From Phycisphaerae bacterium (GTDB lineage Bacteria > Planctomycetota > Phycisphaerae > UBA1845): DNA of 64,000 nt. Position numbers and translations under genes: made by a program. Below the pieces are notes generated by a model that was not told where the DNA came from, did no database searches, and saw only the letters and a list, made by a program, of their open reading frames with translations. Below are positions 9,861 through 17,301 of this stretch, in pieces (the first letter of the stretch is position 1; each line of letters begins with the position of its first letter). The stretch lies in NCBI GenBank assembly GCA_963666835.2, contig CAXXGO010000006.1:1024001-1088000 (forward strand). Reading direction: 5' to 3'.

Positions 9861-10317
9861 GCGGCGCTGTGGCGGATCGGGTCGTAAGGGGTACCTCGAC
9901 CGTGCCCGACAGGTCGGTCCGGGGTGCGGCCGCGGGGAGCATGTTCGGCCAGACCACCGCACGATGCCTGTAACCGTCCAAACCATTGCGTAACGGCTAT
10001 AACCGTCGAGACCATCGCACGACGCCCGTGATCCGACGCCACTAGCCACATATCCGCGTCCGGGACGCCTGTAACCGTCCAAAATGCCCCATGACGCCCG
10101 TAACCGTCCGGCTCCGGTCGCGCCGGCAGATTATCGGATTAAGACTTGTTTTTCGGACCCGGTTAAGCTAGGCTATCGGACTCGGGAGTGCGCGTATCAG
10201 GGGTACGGGCCGCGCACTTCAACGATGGAGAAAAGGGAGCGGAAGCCCACACCTCTGAATACGGGAAATAACTGTGCGCCGGCGGCCAGGGCGGGTCGTT
10301 CGGGAAAGGAGTGGAAG

Positions 10318-12195
10318 ATGGAGTGGCGTCATTTGTGGGGCGGATTCGTTGCGGTGATTGTGCTCGTGTTCTTGGGCCTTACGGCCAATCCGGCGACCTC
10401 GGCCCCTCTGCCGGATACGGAAGCCTGCTGCGTTGGCGACGGAGATGTGTGCTTCAACATGCCGCCGGATGCGTGCATTGACGAAGGCGGCGGGACCCCG
10501 CAGGGCCCGGGTACGTACTGCCTCGGGGACGGCAACGGCAACGGGATTGACGACGCCTGCGAGGGCGGTGCGGAGACGCAGGCCTGCTGCCTGCCGGACG
10601 GTAGTTGTGTTGACGTCGACCCGATGGAGTGCGTGGAGAGCCTTGGCGGCGCGGCGCAGGGAACTGAAACCGTTTGCACCGAGCCGGCCGCCTGCTGCCT
10701 GCCGGACGACAGTTGTGCCAACCTGGACCCGCTCTGTTGTCTTGAGCAGGGCGGCGACTCTGTGGCGGGGTGGTGCTCCACTCCCGAAGCCTGTTGCATG
10801 CCGGACGGCACTTGTGTCGAGCTGGATCCCGCCTGCTGCACCGCCGAGGGCGGTACTCCGCAAGGCGCCGGTACGACCTGCACCGCTGTCGAGGCTTGTT
10901 GCCTGCCGGACGGAACTTGTGCCGCGTTGGACCCGCTATGTTGCACTGCCGAGGGCGGTACTCCGCAGGGTGCGGGCTCTGTTTGCACCGCCGTCGAGGC
11001 TTGCTGCCTTTCGGATGGCGCTTGTGCCGATCTCGACCCACTGTGTTGCATCGCGGAGGGTGGTACTCCCCAGGGGCCCGGAACGGCATGTTCCGCCGTT
11101 GATGCCTGTTGCCTTCCTGATGGGACGTGCATTATGGCAGACCCCGCCTGTTGTGCGGATCTCGGCGGTGTGACCCAAGCCGGCCAGGCCTGCACGGCCG
11201 TCGAAGCTTGCTGCCTTTCGGACGGAACCTGTGCCGAAATGGACCCGCTCTGCTGTGCGGCCGAGGGTGGCGTTCCTCAGGGTATCGGCTCGGTATGCAC
11301 GGCCGCGGAAGCCTGCTGCCTGCCGGACGATACCTGTGCTGAGCTTGACCCGCTTTGCTGCGCCAGCCAGGGCGGAACTCCTCAAGGTGCCGGTACGGTA
11401 TGTACGGCCGTGGAGGCCTGCTGCCTGCCGGATAACACCTGTGCCGATCTTGATCCGCTCTGCTGTGCCGACTTGGGGGGTGTTTCCGAAGGTGCCGGTA
11501 CGCAATGTACTGATGTGGCGCCATGCTGCCTGGCGGACGGAACGTGCCTGATGGTCGATCCTTTGTGTTGTGTTGAACTCGGGGGTACGGTGCAGGCCGG
11601 CGGTGGTGCTTGCACGGCTGAAGAAGGTTGCTGTTTTGCCGACGGAACGTGCGCTACGCTTGATCCGCTCTGCTGTATCGACCAGGGCGGGACCCCGCAG
11701 GGTGCCGGTACGGTTTGCACGGCCGTTGAGGGCTGCTGCTTCGGCGACGGCACCTGTACCGATCTCGACCCGCTCTGTTGTCTTGAGCAGGGCGGAACAC
11801 CGCAAGGCGCCGGCACGGTCTGTACGGAAGAGCAGGCATGCTGCGACCCGGCCAGCGGCGTGTGCGTAATGCTCGACCCGCTGTGCTGTGCGAACCAGGG
11901 CGGCTCGCCGCAGGGCGCCGGCAGCTATTGCAGTGCCTATCAGGCGTGCTGCTATCCGGACGATACCTGTCGGAATATGGACCCGGCGTGCTGTGTGGAT
12001 CAGGGCGGAGTGCCCGGCGGATCCGGTTCGGCGTGCGAGGGTGACTGGAACGGCGACGGGGCGGACGACTTCTGCCGGTCGCCTTGGGAAGACGAGATTC
12101 CCACGACGTCGACGTGGGGGTTGATTACCCTGGCTCTGCTGCTGCTCGTTGCGGGTAAGGTGTACTTCGGTCGGCGGACTTCGCCCGTCGCGTAA
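10318..12195 (+). CDS. IPTL-CTERM surface protein with 15 ~35-aa Cys-rich repeats
   Basis: Signal peptide; repeat ACCLPDGTCxxLDPLCCxxxGGTPQGAGTVCT; tail IPTTSTWGLITLALLLLVAGKVYFGRR. Confidence 0.9.
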   Translation: MEWRHLWGGFVAVIVLVFLGLTANPATSAPLPDTEACCVGDGDVCFNMPPDACIDEGGGTPQGPGTYCLGDGNGNGIDDACEGGAETQACCLPDGSCVDVDPMECVESLGGAAQGTETVCTEPAACCLPDDSCANLDPLCCLEQGGDSVAGWCSTPEACCMPDGTCVELDPACCTAEGGTPQGAGTTCTAVEACCLPDGTCAALDPLCCTAEGGTPQGAGSVCTAVEACCLSDGACADLDPLCCIAEGGTPQGPGTACSAVDACCLPDGTCIMADPACCADLGGVTQAGQACTAVEACCLSDGTCAEMDPLCCAAEGGVPQGIGSVCTAAEACCLPDDTCAELDPLCCASQGGTPQGAGTVCTAVEACCLPDNTCADLDPLCCADLGGVSEGAGTQCTDVAPCCLADGTCLMVDPLCCVELGGTVQAGGGACTAEEGCCFADGTCATLDPLCCIDQGGTPQGAGTVCTAVEGCCFGDGTCTDLDPLCCLEQGGTPQGAGTVCTEEQACCDPASGVCVMLDPLCCANQGGSPQGAGSYCSAYQACCYPDDTCRNMDPACCVDQGGVPGGSGSACEGDWNGDGADDFCRSPWEDEIPTTSTWGLITLALLLLVAGKVYFGRRTSPVA

Positions 12196-12223
12196 GACCG
12201 ACAGGTTTATGTGTTGAAGATCG

Positions 12224-12258
12224 CGGGCCGCTCCGATACGGGGCGGCCCGTGTTTTCT
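12224..12258 (+). terminator. Intrinsic terminator
   Basis: CGGGCCGCTCC-GATAC-GGGGCGGCCCG followed by TGTTTTCTT. Confidence 0.75.
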
Positions 12259-12329
12259 TATGGCGGATCCAGGAAAGCGTGTTGGTTCTTCGCGCTGTTG
12301 TGTCATGGTTCTGTCATTGAGAGGTCGGG

Positions 12330-12417
12330 CGCGCCCCGTTGGGGTCGAAGAGACGCAACGTCGGTGTACCCAGGGTAGCCGCTGCGCAGCAACCCTGGGC
12401 TATAGGACGTAACGCCT
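12330..12417. repeat. REP-like palindrome (left part; its last hairpin is split by the DUF1670 element)
   Basis: CCCCGTTGGGG, CCCAGGGT...ACCCTGGG, then ACGCC whose partner GGCGT lies after 14330. Confidence 0.7.
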
Positions 12418-12482
12418 ACCTTCCTGACATATGTCCACCCGGGTACCTTGGTAACGGACTTCGGGACTTGGGAGGACTACGC

Positions 12483-13334
12483 ATGGGGCTGCGGAACAAG
12501 AAGAAGGAGAGGCTTGAGCGTCTTGACTCGAAGACACTGGATGCCAAGTTTTTGCACGAAATCAAGCACGGACTCCATTGTTCGCCATTCGAGGCCGAGG
12601 CGGTTCTCGATGTGGTCAAGGAAGTTTACTTCCCGTACCTCGATGAACACGCCGGCAAGGCCCCACCTGGCAAGATTGGCTTGGTCGTCGTCGACGCCGA
12701 CGAGCCTGCCGGGAAACCCGTCTGCGAATGCCAGAAGCAGAACGTGTGCCTGACAATCCACCGAGGTGCAGAGGATGATCGACTTCTGGAGGAGGAGGGG
12801 CCGGTCGGCTTTCGACAAGCCCGCATCCCACCGCTTTGCCAAGAAGCCCTGAGTCAAGGTGGGCTGCTCACGCGCGAAGATCTGGCCTACCGGATGTTCT
12901 TTGTTACGCCACGAACCATTACGCGCGATTTGAACGCTCTCCGGAGTGCGTATCCCGGGGTGCTTATTCCTCTGCGAGGAATCGTACACGATCTTGGTCC
13001 CGTGTTGACTCATCGCAGCCAAATCGTGCGTTTGGCTCTGGAGGGAAAGACGACCTCACAGATCTGCACCATGCTTCGCCATTCACCGGCGGCTGTAGCG
13101 AACTACGTCTCGACATTCACCCGTTGTGCGCAGTTGGCAAAGAAAGGTATGCAGGTCGGGCAAATCGCCTTCCTTCTGCGGAGAGGCAAGCGGTTGGTAC
13201 AACAGTACCTTGATCTCCTCGACGAATGCGCGGTCGACAAGAACATGGGCTATCACCTGGAAGAACTGATGCGCCTGGGTTGTTGTGGCGGGGGGAAAAA
13301 GGGACACGGTGAAGAGGGAAGATCCGATGGGTAA
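12483..13334 (+). CDS. DUF1670-like protein A
   Basis: GGAGG RBS; EALSQGGLLTREDL, PLRGIVHDLGPVLTH and HSPAAVANY motifs; C-terminal HTH-like segments. Confidence 0.8.
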   Translation: MGLRNKKKERLERLDSKTLDAKFLHEIKHGLHCSPFEAEAVLDVVKEVYFPYLDEHAGKAPPGKIGLVVVDADEPAGKPVCECQKQNVCLTIHRGAEDDRLLEEEGPVGFRQARIPPLCQEALSQGGLLTREDLAYRMFFVTPRTITRDLNALRSAYPGVLIPLRGIVHDLGPVLTHRSQIVRLALEGKTTSQICTMLRHSPAAVANYVSTFTRCAQLAKKGMQVGQIAFLLRRGKRLVQQYLDLLDECAVDKNMGYHLEELMRLGCCGGGKKGHGEEGRSDG

Positions 13335-14100
13335 GCCGCGAGACACCAACAGCAGAAGATACAGTCCCCTGCAGGCGAAAACGCTGAGAAACGTGTTGGC
13401 TCACCGCATCGAAACGGAGTTTCCACGCATAGGCGGCCCACGGATTCGCAACCTGTGCGCAGAGATGATCCTTGAGGTCATCGGTGCCCACGTTCTCCCG
13501 AAGGAGCATATCCAACATGGTCAGATACTCTGGATGGCGATCAGCAGCGCAGATCCCCCGAGTCAGCGTCGACGGATTGAGGATACCGATCTGCTTCCGG
13601 TGGTCTTGGACGTGAGTACCTTCGAGGATATCGAGATGCGTTTGCAGAAGAAGGGACGTGGAGAGTTGCTCTTACAAAAGAGCTTGAGGTTATGCCGACA
13701 GGCGTACGAACAAGGGGGCGTTCTGTCCAACTCTGATCTCTCGGAGTTGTTAGCAGTCAATGCGTCGGACGTCTCGCGATTGTTGGCGGCGTACGAACGC
13801 GAGACCGGTCAGATCGTCCCACGTCGCGCTACTGTCCACGATGTCGGCACAGGGCTTACGCACAAACGGATCATCTGTTTCAAACATTACGCAGAAGGCA
13901 AAGCGGCTAACGAAGTGGCTCGGGAAACGTACCACAGCCTTGAGGCTGTGGATCGTTACCTGGGCCAGTACGATCGCGTCCGCCACTGCCATCTTCAGGG
14001 GCTGACGGCAAAGGAGACAGCCCATGCTTTAGGTTGCAGCATCTTCCTGGTTCAGGAGTACCTGGAGATCGATCATGAGTTGGAGGGCCAGCATGCTTGA
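13327..14100 (+). CDS. DUF1670-like protein B (paralog of A, overlapping its stop)
   Basis: QAYEQGGVLSNSDL, PRRATVHDVGTGLTHK and HSLEAVDRY motifs. Confidence 0.85.
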   Translation: MGKPRDTNSRRYSPLQAKTLRNVLAHRIETEFPRIGGPRIRNLCAEMILEVIGAHVLPKEHIQHGQILWMAISSADPPSQRRRIEDTDLLPVVLDVSTFEDIEMRLQKKGRGELLLQKSLRLCRQAYEQGGVLSNSDLSELLAVNASDVSRLLAAYERETGQIVPRRATVHDVGTGLTHKRIICFKHYAEGKAANEVARETYHSLEAVDRYLGQYDRVRHCHLQGLTAKETAHALGCSIFLVQEYLEIDHELEGQHA

Positions 14101-14559
14101 CTCGATGGCACAGCACGTCAGACTTGTGTGTGCTGGTCGAGAGGACAGGGCTCTGCTGAGGAGCACCCCGAGCGCTCGTACCAGTGCCGGGACAGGCGCG
14201 GGAGTCTGCATGCACGGCGGGCTCTCGCTCTCCCTGGCCTGTTCTGGCTCCCAAGCGACAAACCTTGGGGGTCTGGGGGCAAAGCCCCCGGTGATCGCCA
14301 CACGGTCGCGGTGGACATATGTCACTATCTTCGGCGTATGTTGGGATCGCGGCTCATACTAATGCCCCCGGGCGGTATTGAGTTCTCAGGTGCCTGTCTT
14401 TTTGGGCCGTTTCCGACGATGAATCGCGGGAAGATGTAGGCGGGCAGGTGTAGTCCGGCCGAAGCCATGCGGTCTTCATCTTGACACACGTGGGTTGCGG
14501 GTCTACGGTCCATCGCGCGGAGACCGGACGAACGAGGCCGCGGACCTGCCCCGGGCAAC

Positions 14560-17301
14560 ATGGCAAAGACGCTCTATCTCATTGACGGGCACGCTCAGAT
14601 CTACCGGGCGTATTACGCGCCGTTCCGCGAGCTGAACAGTCCGACGGGCGAGCCGACTCGCGCAACGTACGTATTCTGCCAGATGCTTCTGAACCTGATC
14701 CGCGATCGTCGGCCGGATTACCTTGCTATGGTGCTGGATCCGCCGCCGGACGAAGAACGAGGCGTCTTTAGGTACGAGATCGACAACCGCTACAAAGCCA
14801 ATCGTGACCCCGGTCCGGAGGATCTCTACGTTCAAGCCCGCCGCATCGTCTCGATCGTTACCGCCTTGGGGATTCCTGTTCACTGTGTGCCCGGCTTCGA
14901 GGCGGACGACCTGCTGGCCACGATCGGGCATCGAATGCGGGACGAGGATGTCGACGTATGCCTGGTAAGCCGCGACAAGGATCTCGAGCAATTGCTGACC
15001 GACCGCCTGCGGCTGTATGACCCGCAGAAGGACGAGGTGATCGACCCGAGGGTGCTTTTGGAGAAGAAGGGCTACTCCCCCGAGCAGGCGGTCGAGGTGC
15101 AGACGCTGGCGGGCGACTCGGCGGACAATATCCCCGGCGTGCCGGGGGTGGGGATCAAGACGGCCGCGAAGCTGGTCAGGAAGTACGGCTCGGCCCAGGC
15201 GGTGCTGGAGCATGCCGCCGAGCTTACCCCGAAGATGCGCGAGAACGTGGCGGCGTTCGCCGAGCAGTTGCCGGTCACTCGTGAATTGGTGACTTTGCGG
15301 AAGGACGTGCCGCTGGACTTTCGCCTTGATGACTGCCGGGCCGACGATGTCGACTTCTCCGCCGTTCGGCCGATCTTCTCGGAGCTGGGTTTTCGCCGGC
15401 TTCTCGATACGCTGGACGGTTTCAAGCCTGCCGCTTCGCCCGTAGATGACAACTCTGCGTCACTAAAACACGCGGGCGAGCCGGAGATTCACGTTGAGTA
15501 TCACCTTGTCGATAGCATCGAGGCGCTCGACGAATTCGTAGCGAAGCTCCGGGCGGACACGCAAGGTAAGGCGTTCGCCCTGGATACTGAGACCACCGGC
15601 TTGAATCCGGTGGCCGCGAAGTTGGTCGGGCTCTCGTTTTCATGGAAGGCGGGGGAAGCGTATTACCTTCCGGTGCGGGCGTCGGTCGGGGCGGTGCTGC
15701 CTGAAGCGGTGGTGGTCGAGAAGCTCAAGCCAATCCTCGAAGACCCCACAGTCGGAAAAGTGGGGCAGAACATCAAATACGATCTCGTCGTGTTGCGCCA
15801 GGTCGGCATCGAGGTGGCGGGGGTCGCGTTTGACACGATGATTGCCAGCTTCCTGCTCGATCCGCATCGGTCTTCGCATTCGATGGACGCGCTGGTTCGG
15901 AACCTGCTCGGACACGAGATGATCCCGATCTCGGATTTGATCGGTAAGGGCAAGAACCAGATTACTATGGACCAGATCGACACGGCCCGCACTGGTGAAT
16001 ACGCCGCGGAGGACGCGGATTTCACCTGGCGGCTCAAGGAGCTCTTCGAGCCTCAGATAACCGGCAGCCCCGTCGAGCGTCTGTTCCATGACACGGAGAT
16101 GCCTCTCGTTGAAGTCCTGGCCTCGATGGAGCACAACGGTATTGCCTTGGATGAGGCGTTGCTCGGGCGCCTTAGTTTCACAATCGCGCAGCGGTTGAGC
16201 GAGCTGACCGCGAGGGTCCATCAGGCGGCCGGGCATTCGTTCAACATCGATTCGCCCAAGCAGCTTGCCGGGGTGCTATTCGACGAGCAGGGGCTGGCCT
16301 CGGTCAAGAAGACCAAGACCGGCAGGAGCACGGACGCCGAGACCCTCAACACGCTGGCGCGGCAGACAGATAACGCGATCCCGCAACTTGTGCTCGAGTA
16401 TCGGGAGCTGGCCAAGCTTAAGAACACCTATGTGGATACGCTGCCGAAGATGATCTGCCGGCGTACCGGACGGCTCCACGCCAGCTTCAACCAGATCGGC
16501 GCGATCACCGGGCGGCTCTCCTCCAGCGATCCGAACTTACAGAATATCCCGATTCGAACTGAGACCGGTCGGCAGATTCGGGCCGCGGTAGTGGCGGGTG
16601 AGCCTGACAATGTGTTGCTGGCGGCCGACTATTCGCAGATCGAGCTGCGGCTCCTGGCCCACTTCTGCCGGGATACCACTCTGCTCGAGGCCTTCCAGAG
16701 CGGGCAGGACATCCATCGAGTCGTCGCGGCCCAGGTCAACGGCGTGTCGGTGGACGAGGTCACCACCGCTCAGCGCAGCGCGGCCAAGGCCGTCAACTTC
16801 GGCATTGTTTACGGGCAATCCGCGTTCGGGCTGGCCAAGGCCCTGGATATTCCGGTAGGCGAAGCCCAGATGTTCATCGATACGTATTTCCTGCGTTATC
16901 CCGGAATCCGACTGTTCATTGATGACTGTATCGCGCGCACGAAGGCCAACGGCTACGCCGAGACGATTCTGGGCCGGCGGCGTCAGGTGCCCGAGCTGCG
17001 CTCCCGCAACCGCCAGCAAGTCGGTCTCGGTGAGCGGATCGCGGTTAATACGGTGGTACAGGGTTCCGCGGCCGATTTGATCAAGCGGGCCATGATCGAT
17101 ATCCACCGCGCGCTGGCGAAGGACGATCAGGTAGTCCGCATGCTGATCCAGGTCCACGACGAGCTGGTCTTCGAGGTCCCCGGCGCGCTGGTTGAGCCGA
17201 CGGCCGCGATGGTTCGAGAGAAGATGGAAAGCGCCATGTCTTTGAACGTGCCCCTGGTGGCTGATGTGGCTTGGGGTCGTACCTGGGCGGAAGCGAAGTA
17301 G
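14560..17301 (+). CDS. polA: DNA polymerase I
   Basis: LYLIDG 5'-3' exonuclease start, DTETT 3'-5' exonuclease motif, TGRLSSSDPNLQNIP, DYSQIELR, QVHDEL. Confidence 0.98.
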   Translation: MAKTLYLIDGHAQIYRAYYAPFRELNSPTGEPTRATYVFCQMLLNLIRDRRPDYLAMVLDPPPDEERGVFRYEIDNRYKANRDPGPEDLYVQARRIVSIVTALGIPVHCVPGFEADDLLATIGHRMRDEDVDVCLVSRDKDLEQLLTDRLRLYDPQKDEVIDPRVLLEKKGYSPEQAVEVQTLAGDSADNIPGVPGVGIKTAAKLVRKYGSAQAVLEHAAELTPKMRENVAAFAEQLPVTRELVTLRKDVPLDFRLDDCRADDVDFSAVRPIFSELGFRRLLDTLDGFKPAASPVDDNSASLKHAGEPEIHVEYHLVDSIEALDEFVAKLRADTQGKAFALDTETTGLNPVAAKLVGLSFSWKAGEAYYLPVRASVGAVLPEAVVVEKLKPILEDPTVGKVGQNIKYDLVVLRQVGIEVAGVAFDTMIASFLLDPHRSSHSMDALVRNLLGHEMIPISDLIGKGKNQITMDQIDTARTGEYAAEDADFTWRLKELFEPQITGSPVERLFHDTEMPLVEVLASMEHNGIALDEALLGRLSFTIAQRLSELTARVHQAAGHSFNIDSPKQLAGVLFDEQGLASVKKTKTGRSTDAETLNTLARQTDNAIPQLVLEYRELAKLKNTYVDTLPKMICRRTGRLHASFNQIGAITGRLSSSDPNLQNIPIRTETGRQIRAAVVAGEPDNVLLAADYSQIELRLLAHFCRDTTLLEAFQSGQDIHRVVAAQVNGVSVDEVTTAQRSAAKAVNFGIVYGQSAFGLAKALDIPVGEAQMFIDTYFLRYPGIRLFIDDCIARTKANGYAETILGRRRQVPELRSRNRQQVGLGERIAVNTVVQGSAADLIKRAMIDIHRALAKDDQVVRMLIQVHDELVFEVPGALVEPTAAMVREKMESAMSLNVPLVADVAWGRTWAEAK

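Follow-up and report, generated by a model that had tools for sequence, protein, structure and literature searches.

The results presented here establish that a 1913-bp stretch of the genome of a Phycisphaerae bacterium is a real, recently active mobile element, and that it belongs to a family of site-specific insertion sequences (ISs) for which we found no description in print. The element lies at positions 12417 to 14329 (+ strand) of a 64,000-nt window, that is, the whole stretch of DNA analysed (assembly GCA_963666835.2, contig CAXXGO010000006.1, positions 1,024,001 to 1,088,000 of the forward strand), in a genome of 6.02 Mb assembled in 7 contigs (G000; C1 to C7 below). It carries two paralogous genes of the family DUF1670 between subterminal inverted repeats (IRs), and it occupies one exact point of a repetitive extragenic palindromic (REP) hairpin. 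The element encodes just two proteins, related to each other and predicted to bind DNA, and nothing recognisable as an enzyme that cuts DNA; its mode of movement is therefore probably one that has yet to be described. Our somewhat favoured reading is that the family is autonomous and that the DUF1670 pair is its recombinase, a catalytic role that we infer.

The element reads T...C and comprises, from left to right and all on the + strand, an 8-nt terminal extension, TACCTTCC (12417-12424); a 15-bp subterminal IR, TGACATATGTCCACC (12425-12439); open reading frame (ORF) 1 (12483-13334; 283 aa); ORF2 (13327-14100; 257 aa); a 3' non-coding region (14101-14309) that includes a conserved module at 14239-14292 (AAGCGACAAACC..GGGGGTCTGGGGGCAAAGCCCCC); a second 15-bp IR, GGTGGACATATGTCA, the reverse complement of TGACATATGTCCACC (14310-14324); and a 5-nt terminal extension, CTATC (14325-14329). 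Both IRs contain the palindrome GACATATGTC (at 12426-12435 in the left IR), a 10-bp perfect dyad without a loop. ORF1 is a DUF1670 paralogue with an HTH_23 helix-turn-helix (HTH) domain (Pfam E 1.8e-37), ORF2 is a full-length DUF1670 protein (Pfam E 1.6e-49), and the two frames share 8 nt (ATGGGTAA) where ORF2 starts and ORF1 stops. The element splits a REP hairpin: to its left lie the REP body, CCCAGGGT..CCCTGGGCT.., and the 5' arm ACGCC of the last hairpin (12369-12416), and to its right lie the loop TTC and the 3' arm GGCGT (14330-14337), as read at the junction, at other copies and at empty sites. A first-pass annotation, made from the letters of the window, had described the paired DUF1670 genes, the IRs with their shared palindrome and the junctions AACGC-CT-ACCTTCC-IR and IR-CTAT-CT-TCGGCGTA, and all of these were found as described on re-reading. 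The same annotation had placed the IRs 7 and 4 nt from a CT core. The CT present at both junctions cannot be assigned to element or target within the window genome, and the boundaries are ambiguous by CT there; because relatives settle the ambiguity, we adopt the parse that fits them too, from 12417 (T) to 14329 (C), with flanks AACGCC on the left and TTCGGCGTA on the right and with the IRs still subterminal, 8 and 5 nt from the ends. A scan for promoters and terminators returned nothing at the element ends, and a comparison of window positions 12000-14800 with Rfam returned a single chance microRNA row (E 0.99).

Evidence for mobility comes from the copies, from an empty locus and from distribution. 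The IR 15-mer occurs 13 times in the 6.02-Mb genome: 12 times in six full copies of the element, which differ from one another at 1-3 bases, and once in a truncated right end (C6:1881239-1881279). Twelve DUF1670 matches are found in the genome, all within the six copies. One 4905-nt contig of public run X3, with a depth of 12.3, connects window position 12415 directly to 14329, with 2 ambiguous letters, and sequence depth in that run is 91.8 over the element vs. 12.3 over the flanks. Because this contig skips exactly the 1913 bases of the element, the window locus is empty in a related population that also has the element in several copies. In a set of 40 related genomes, DUF1670 was detected in two, as one pair and one fragment, and a tblastn search of a plasmid collection returned no match to element protein. 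The proposal that the gene pair is a mobile element thus stands, with six copies, an empty orthologous site, patchy occurrence among relatives and gene-less derivatives in its favour, and the search of the genome that the first-pass annotation had suggested yielded, together with the six copies, 44 exact empty sites.

The empty sites define the target. The site ACGCCTTCGGCGT is present in 44 exact copies in the genome, vs. 0.4 expected by composition, along with 113 one-mismatch copies of the target hairpin, and the repeat body CCCTGGGCT lies upstream of ACGCCTTCGGCGT at 43 of the 44 exact sites. All six copies of the element are inserted at the same point and in the same orientation, ..CCCAGGGT..CCCTGGGCT..(A/T)ACGCC-element-(T/A)(T/A)CGGCGTA, in agreement with the claim that insertion occurs at one exact point of a REP hairpin. 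The empty site is the left flank followed by the right flank, with no target-site duplication of 2 bp or more, and neither the copies nor the empty sites show the ~9-bp duplications that the first-pass annotation had named as evidence against its proposal. The hairpin occurs in many dispersed copies, and a gene of the family Y1_Tnp (C1:288162-288464), resembling REP-associated tyrosine transposases (RAYTs), lies between two inverted copies of it, at -226 nt (+) and +302 nt (-). The presence of a Y1_Tnp gene flanked by two inverted hairpin copies makes the name REP a fair one for the target repeat, and the RAYT-like gene may be the spreader of the repeat family.

The element has a large family. 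A word-indexed search with ORF2 retrieved 1453 relatives at E <= 0.001, and a profile of the ORF2 family matched, among 1.84 billion representatives, 1680 clusters (50% identity) at E <= 0.001, 973 at 1e-10 and 262 at 1e-30. For 115 of the 119 best homologues listed with contig size, the contig is <= 4.2 kb long, which is the signature of a repeat that breaks assemblies. In species genomes (metagenome-assembled genomes, MAGs), 55 DUF1670 loci were found, in MAGs labelled Planctomycetota, Acidobacteriota, Anaerolineales (Chloroflexota), Verrucomicrobiota, Nitrospiraceae, Rhodothermales, Lentisphaerota, Spirochaetes, a Candidatus Uhrbacteria and others, with several copies apiece in several long-read MAGs. 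The ends are kept together with the genes. In 28 of 43 loci a perfect palindrome (GACATATGTC, GACAATTGTC or GCCAWWTGGC) occupies the expected position, in 11 of them at both ends, and the sequences outside the palindromes are kept as TACCTTC on the left and NNNATC on the right; at loci from other phyla, the left end reads T-ACCTTC(C/T)N-palindrome and the right end reads palindrome-NN(G/T/A)AT-C, with G or T in place of the last C in a few. Four loci of Acidobacteriota MAGs (L013, L014, L018 and L019) illustrate this: CGCCCC, then the element, TACCTTCC-AGACATATGTCCGG ... GACATATGTC-CGGATC, then (T/T/T/T)(T/C/T/A)CGGGGC. Elements of the L013 type are multi-copy and have only ~60 nt from the ORF2 stop to the right palindrome.

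The two-gene arrangement is equally widespread. An upstream ORF1 is present at 30 of 33 related loci, ORF1 and ORF2 overlap by 4 or 8 nt in the elements inspected, and no third conserved ORF was found inside those elements. Natural ORF1-ORF2 fusions occur (P0121, 546 aa; P0123, 534 aa; L010, 555 aa), and several proteins of 930-952 aa contain three DUF1670 stretches (P0149, P0156, P0157, P0160 and P0124). In another protein (P0122, 470 aa) DUF1670 runs into a DnaG-type zinc ribbon, probably by read-through into the neighbouring gene. At one locus (L093; G045 C20:769368-775600), 6.2 kb separate the left end from the next right-end palindrome and the DUF1670 genes lie in the distal part; this is either an element interrupted by another insertion or a carrier of ~4 kb of cargo.

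Derivatives without genes occur at several loci per genome. Miniature inverted-repeat transposable elements (MITEs) of 118-119 bp, with canonical left and right ends and hairpin targets, are present in 3 copies in G044, 4 in G045 and 1 in G042, and all three genomes also hold DUF1670 genes, the combination expected of MITEs and their autonomous partner. Since these MITEs retain both ends and reside in DUF1670 genomes, we conclude that short ends suffice for movement and that the machinery acts in trans. As single strands, the MITEs of G044 and G045 (L086-L092) form two fold-back hairpins, each consisting of an end and its own inverted copy (folding z -9.4). A still smaller form of 25 bp consists exactly of the left extension, one palindrome and the right extension; one such mini-element lies in the window genome (C6:739732, in a REP), two lie in G041 at different hairpins, and 19 metagenomic stretches represent 14 distinct mini-element loci with both flanks. 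The 25-bp mini-elements are either deletion scars between palindromes or the smallest mobile form. The palindromes of an element are direct as well as inverted repeats of each other, and the mini-elements, the truncated right end and a junction of the form right end-palindrome-right end in the window genome (C5:242199-242220) all join at the 10-bp palindrome, which hints that the palindrome itself may be a site of exchange or deletion. The right end-palindrome-right end junction was considered as a general product and set aside, since among 401 genomes of the phylum it is found only in the window genome. The window genome also contains gene-less remnants of a second subfamily of DUF1670 elements, with the palindrome GACAATTGTC, at C6:796207-796400 and C6:208989; at C6:796381 in the first of these, the order is 3' region, palindrome, inverted left extension (AAGAAGGTA-GGGGC), an arrangement that would fit an inversion between the IRs.

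The mini-elements and the full-length relatives permit the insertion rule to be read across targets. Of the 14 distinct mini-element loci, 13 have C immediately before the left end, whereas the right end is followed by T in 7, A in 4, G in 2 and C in 1; in 9, the two flanks together restore a stem of 5 bp or more closed by a 3-nt loop. Full-length relatives give junctions, with the hyphen marking the point of insertion, of C-C in L009, C-G in L017 and C-T in L010 and L013, with A after the right end in L022, L038 and L020, and the flanks form a GC-rich stem with a 3-nt loop also in L009, L010, L013, L014, L018, L019, L017 and L021. The general rule is therefore that an element reading T...C inserts just 3' of the C that closes the 5' stem arm, without duplication and with an overlap of 0-1 nt (C). 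On this rule, CT is found at the junctions in the window genome because a T...C element landed in a C-T target. The CT core that the first-pass annotation had proposed does not hold as a general feature, and its expectation that DUF1670 gene pairs would have IRs and a shared core is supported in one part and corrected in the other: the palindromes recur in relatives, but CT varies and only the C is shared.

The two proteins are related to each other (26% identity over 250 residues) and match, in Pfam, only DUF1670 and HTH families. NCBIfam adds only a match below threshold (E 0.065; 12.7 bits vs. a cut-off of 100), to the HTH at the N terminus of IS630 transposases. An AlphaFold2 model of ORF2 (45-row alignment; pLDDT, the model's per-residue confidence, 85.8) consists of an N-domain (residues 1-106; three helices, a beta hairpin and a helix), a winged helix (108-174) and two HTH segments (177-225 and 205-257). 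A Foldseek comparison of the model with the PDB returned nothing at E <= 0.001. Exhaustive structural alignment (VIA-align; 48,161 chains) returned generic winged-helix and sigma-region-4 regulators, with a best Z of 6.3; the winged helix of TopoVI-A/Spo11 (Z 6.0/5.3) was considered as a candidate and rejected as indistinguishable from other winged helices. The N-domain folded alone (pLDDT 80.4) gave a best structural match of Z 3.4, that is, no match in the searches run. A sequence profile against the PDB found no solved relative (one row, at E 0.52), PHROGs returned weak HTH rows only, and the best ESM Atlas matches (score 0.81) are HTH clusters, which constitute a lead only. The first-pass annotation had seen no DDE, DEDD, serine or HUH transposase motif, and the searches concur, with tyrosine enzymes also undetected: no DDE or RNase H-like family was detected by Pfam or NCBIfam at E up to 0.1, nor such a domain among the structural matches listed; no resolvase or phage-integrase domain was detected as a Pfam family at E up to 0.1, as a PDB sequence relative or among the fold matches listed; and Pfam finds neither a Y1_Tnp domain nor a DEDD (RuvC-like) transposase in ORF1 or ORF2. 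A set of polar residues is invariant or nearly so in both paralogue families (ORF2 numbering: R121, D137, R167, D172, H179, K/R180, H203, Y211 and Y245), and these may be DNA contacts or an active site. Prediction of an ORF1-ORF2 complex (alignments A4 and A2; score 0.19, mark 0.32) says nothing either way.

The window genome also harbours a resident element of the IS1111 type, 1824 bp long and present in five copies (C7:69788-71611, C1:~1130152, C6:~1568090, C6:~1727688 and C6:~2672837). It carries a DEDD gene of 395-409 aa, a ~550-nt 3' non-coding region and subterminal IRs (CATGAAAGGC and GCCTTTCATG), and it adjoins GGTCCGC..GCGGACC hairpins; its ends (TAATCG-CATGAAAGGC ... GCCTTTCATG-GATAGGGTC) and its targets are unrelated to those of the DUF1670 element. 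The genome contains 5 matches to PF01548, all at loci other than the DUF1670 element. The conserved module of the DUF1670 element (54 nt, AAGCGAYAAAC..GGGGGTCTGGGGGCAnnGCCCCC; window 14239-14292) recurs, reverse-complemented, in all five IS1111-type copies (C7:71299-71352, opposite strand); elsewhere in the window genome it is present in the six element copies, in a remnant (C6:796207-796359) and at a 1-mismatch site (C1:1110411), and it is also found in relatives L021 and L032. Two stretches that resemble the target were set aside as chance: one in the leader of the DUF1670 element (12451-12464, GTAACG..CTTCGG), which has a 1-nt offset and is not kept in the leaders of relatives, and one of 10-13 nt inside the IS1111-type DEDD gene, which is coding sequence.

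The element resembles several known systems in part. Like members of the IS200/IS605 family, it makes no duplication, has ends that are unequal and contain subterminal dyads, and inserts on the 3' side of a short, specific sequence; unlike them, the DUF1670 element has no Y1_Tnp and shows no orientation bias with respect to GC skew. IS630 and Tc1-mariner elements are approached in the HTH_23/HTH_29-type domains, but no DDE domain was detected, there is no TA duplication and the ends are not terminal IRs. The closest anatomy is that of the IS1111 group of the IS110 family (ISEc11, ISPa11 and ISKpn4), whose members, according to PMC11187229, have subterminal IRs of 11-13 bp with extensions of 7 and 3 bp, insert without adding bases and use REP or attC targets. 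The DUF1670 element likewise has subterminal IRs (15 bp), unequal extensions (8 and 5 nt, or 7 and 4 nt with the CT parse, with the same geometry in relatives), no duplication, one position and one orientation in a REP or other foldable repeat, and a longer non-coding region downstream of its genes. It differs from IS1111 in that it has no DEDD/RuvC-like transposase, no guide-like match to the target and no Rfam match, in that some relatives have almost no non-coding region and in that its IR core is a perfect palindrome. The DUF1670 element is thus IS1111-like in anatomy and in choice of target, but the features that define IS1111, a DEDD enzyme and a seekRNA-like guide, were not detected in it. 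With IS621 and bridge-RNA recombinases (PMC11208160), it shares insertion in REPs and, in the window genome, junctions that are readable with a CT core; unlike IS621, it has relatives in which CT is not kept, no DEDD enzyme and a null Rfam result. ISPpu9 and ssr9 (PMC12288879) are also elements in REPs, and the ssr9 module spreads by the transposase of another element, ISPpu9; the DUF1670 element, in contrast, shares no ends with the resident DEDD element and has two genes of its own across phyla. A full-text literature search, which did not extend to ISfinder, returned no paper that names DUF1670 or PF07900, and none matching among papers on new IS families.

In favour of the DUF1670 pair as recombinase count the mobility and exact target in the window genome, the conservation of gene pair and ends across phyla, the natural fusions, the polar residues common to both paralogue families, the MITEs in genomes with DUF1670 genes, and the absence of a third conserved ORF that could be an alternative candidate. 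The reading that we favour supposes the following course of events. The two translationally coupled paralogues, which in some relatives form one polypeptide, would act as one unit; dimers of DUF1670 proteins would bind the 10-bp palindrome in each subterminal IR and bring the ends together; the DNA would be broken and rejoined at fixed, unequal distances outside the palindromes (9 nt on the left, 6 nt on the right), with the top-strand break always after a C; and the element would enter a GC-rich REP hairpin where the 5' stem arm meets the 3-nt loop, in one orientation and without duplication. The absence of a duplication suggests that the chemistry is conservative or passes through a covalent intermediate, and is not the staggered strand transfer of DDE enzymes, and conservative recombination with the two DUF1670 proteins as the enzyme, which the first-pass annotation had proposed, would be one such course. 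The same proteins may also exchange strands at the palindromes, a reaction that would produce fold-back ends as well as 25-bp scars in which a single palindrome links the left end to the right end. A more specific form of the proposal, in which the pair is a new class of transposase or recombinase, built of a winged helix, HTH segments and an unmatched N-domain, that performs duplication-free insertion at the hairpin stem/loop border and maybe also strand exchange at palindromes, is one that we put forward tentatively, as falling just short of an even chance.

Several observations weigh against a catalytic role for the DUF1670 pair. IS1111-like anatomy (subterminal IRs, unequal extensions, no duplication, REP target) is that of elements whose ends a DEDD transposase can move in trans, and cargo between IS1111 ends moves when transposase and seekRNA are given in trans (PMC11187229). 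An IS110-family DEDD gene is present in the window genome, in five copies, and in 10 of 10 other DUF1670 genomes, vs. 16 of 40 relatives, and the 54-nt module is common to the 3' non-coding regions of the DUF1670 and IS1111-type elements at 80% identity. No circle junction was present among the assembled contigs of run X3, which cannot show rare forms. All predicted folds are DNA-binding ones (winged helix, two HTH segments, unmatched N-domain), and no catalytic fold or motif was recognised. This last observation would suit an arrangement in which the DUF1670 pair recognises only ends and target and a widespread host enzyme, such as a Xer-type recombinase, a topoisomerase or a junction resolvase, cuts and joins; known elements exploit host Xer recombinases, and duplication-free insertion at a palindromic, structure-capable site would suit a structure- or site-specific enzyme. 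However, no result implicates a host enzyme, the same ends are found in hosts from many phyla, the 9- and 6-nt cleavage spacing is kept with the element and not with the host, and polar residues are kept in both paralogues beyond the needs of the fold. We regard participation of a host enzyme in this manner as unlikely.

The IS1111-like anatomy, the co-resident DEDD genes and the shared module bear instead on the explanation that the element is non-autonomous and is moved in trans by an IS1111/IS110-type DEDD transposase, with the DUF1670 genes as cargo or helpers, for which the dependence of ssr9 on ISPpu9 is a precedent (PMC12288879). Because a control family with the same base rate in 14 reference genomes, Y1_Tnp, is present in 8 of the same 10 DUF1670 genomes, we conclude that the co-occurrence of DEDD and DUF1670 genes mostly reflects IS-rich genomes; moreover, the co-resident DEDD genes score anywhere from 32 to 120 bits against the Pfam model, with no single partner lineage apparent. 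The resident IS1111-type element offers unrelated ends and targets, and its sequence contains no match of at least 8 nt to the DUF1670 circle junction (at 7 nt, 1 hit vs. 3.4 in shuffles). The 3' non-coding region (14101-14309) contains no target match of at least 6 nt, in a search that leaves shorter or split guides outside its reach; the lack of a guide-like match and the ~60-nt gap of the multi-copy L013-type elements together argue against an RNA guide of a known kind. MITE and left-end-only sites, finally, are not beside DEDD genes. These results speak neither for nor conclusively against a dependence on the resident IS1111-type element, and we judge movement in trans by a DEDD transposase to be somewhat less probable than host-enzyme catalysis. 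Conservative exchange across a shared 2-bp CT core, in the manner of IS621, would account for the CT at both junctions, for the restoration of the hairpin on removal of the element and one CT, for the 2 ambiguous letters in the empty-site contig and for the C-T targets of L010 and L013; but T follows the right end at only 7 of the 14 mini-element loci, C, G or A follows it in L009, L017, L022, L038 and L020, and a 2-bp overlap would be mismatched in half of the insertions, which makes such exchange improbable. Similarly improbable is single-strand, hairpin-guided transposition in the manner of IS200/IS605, with the DUF1670 proteins or a REP-associated Y1 enzyme (RAYT) as the catalyst. In its favour are a target invariably located where stem and loop of a potential hairpin meet, cleavage after C at the left junction and at the right end, unequal ends without duplication, and 9 Y1_Tnp matches in the genome, outside the element, including the one between two inverted target-type hairpins. 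However, Y1_Tnp was not found in 2 of 10 DUF1670 genomes (incomplete MAGs), contig C1, which has positive GC skew throughout, contains copies in both orientations (2 + and 2 -), and loopless 10-bp perfect dyads suit dimer binding better than hairpins.

To our knowledge, each described IS family is defined by an enzyme of the DDE, DEDD, HUH, serine or tyrosine type. The DUF1670 family is widespread, its members have two small genes, precise ends and a precise hairpin target, they insert without duplication, and they have gene-less derivatives of 118 and 25 bp. It thus offers a compact, testable system in which to look for a new mode of DNA cleavage and joining; should the chemistry come from elsewhere, the same system would show an element that borrows the enzyme of its host or of a neighbour. 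A 1.9-kb element that inserts site-specifically and scar-free, with a minimal substrate of ~25-120 bp, is also of interest for genome-insertion tools. For annotation, the results imply that the label "CsgD family regulator" or "hypothetical" currently given to DUF1670 pairs should be replaced by one that marks them as IS genes.

At the window locus, the element sits in an intergenic REP between two genes on the + strand. Upstream, a 703-aa ORF (10084-12195) contains ~20 cysteine-rich repeats (ACCLPDGTCxxLDPLCCxxxGGTPQGxGTxCT). The encoded protein has a hydrophobic segment at its N terminus and, at its C terminus, a hydrophobic tail with basic residues after it, and is likely a secreted or anchored repeat protein. 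Downstream, a 913-aa ORF (14560-17301) resembles, by eye from the translation, DNA polymerase I.

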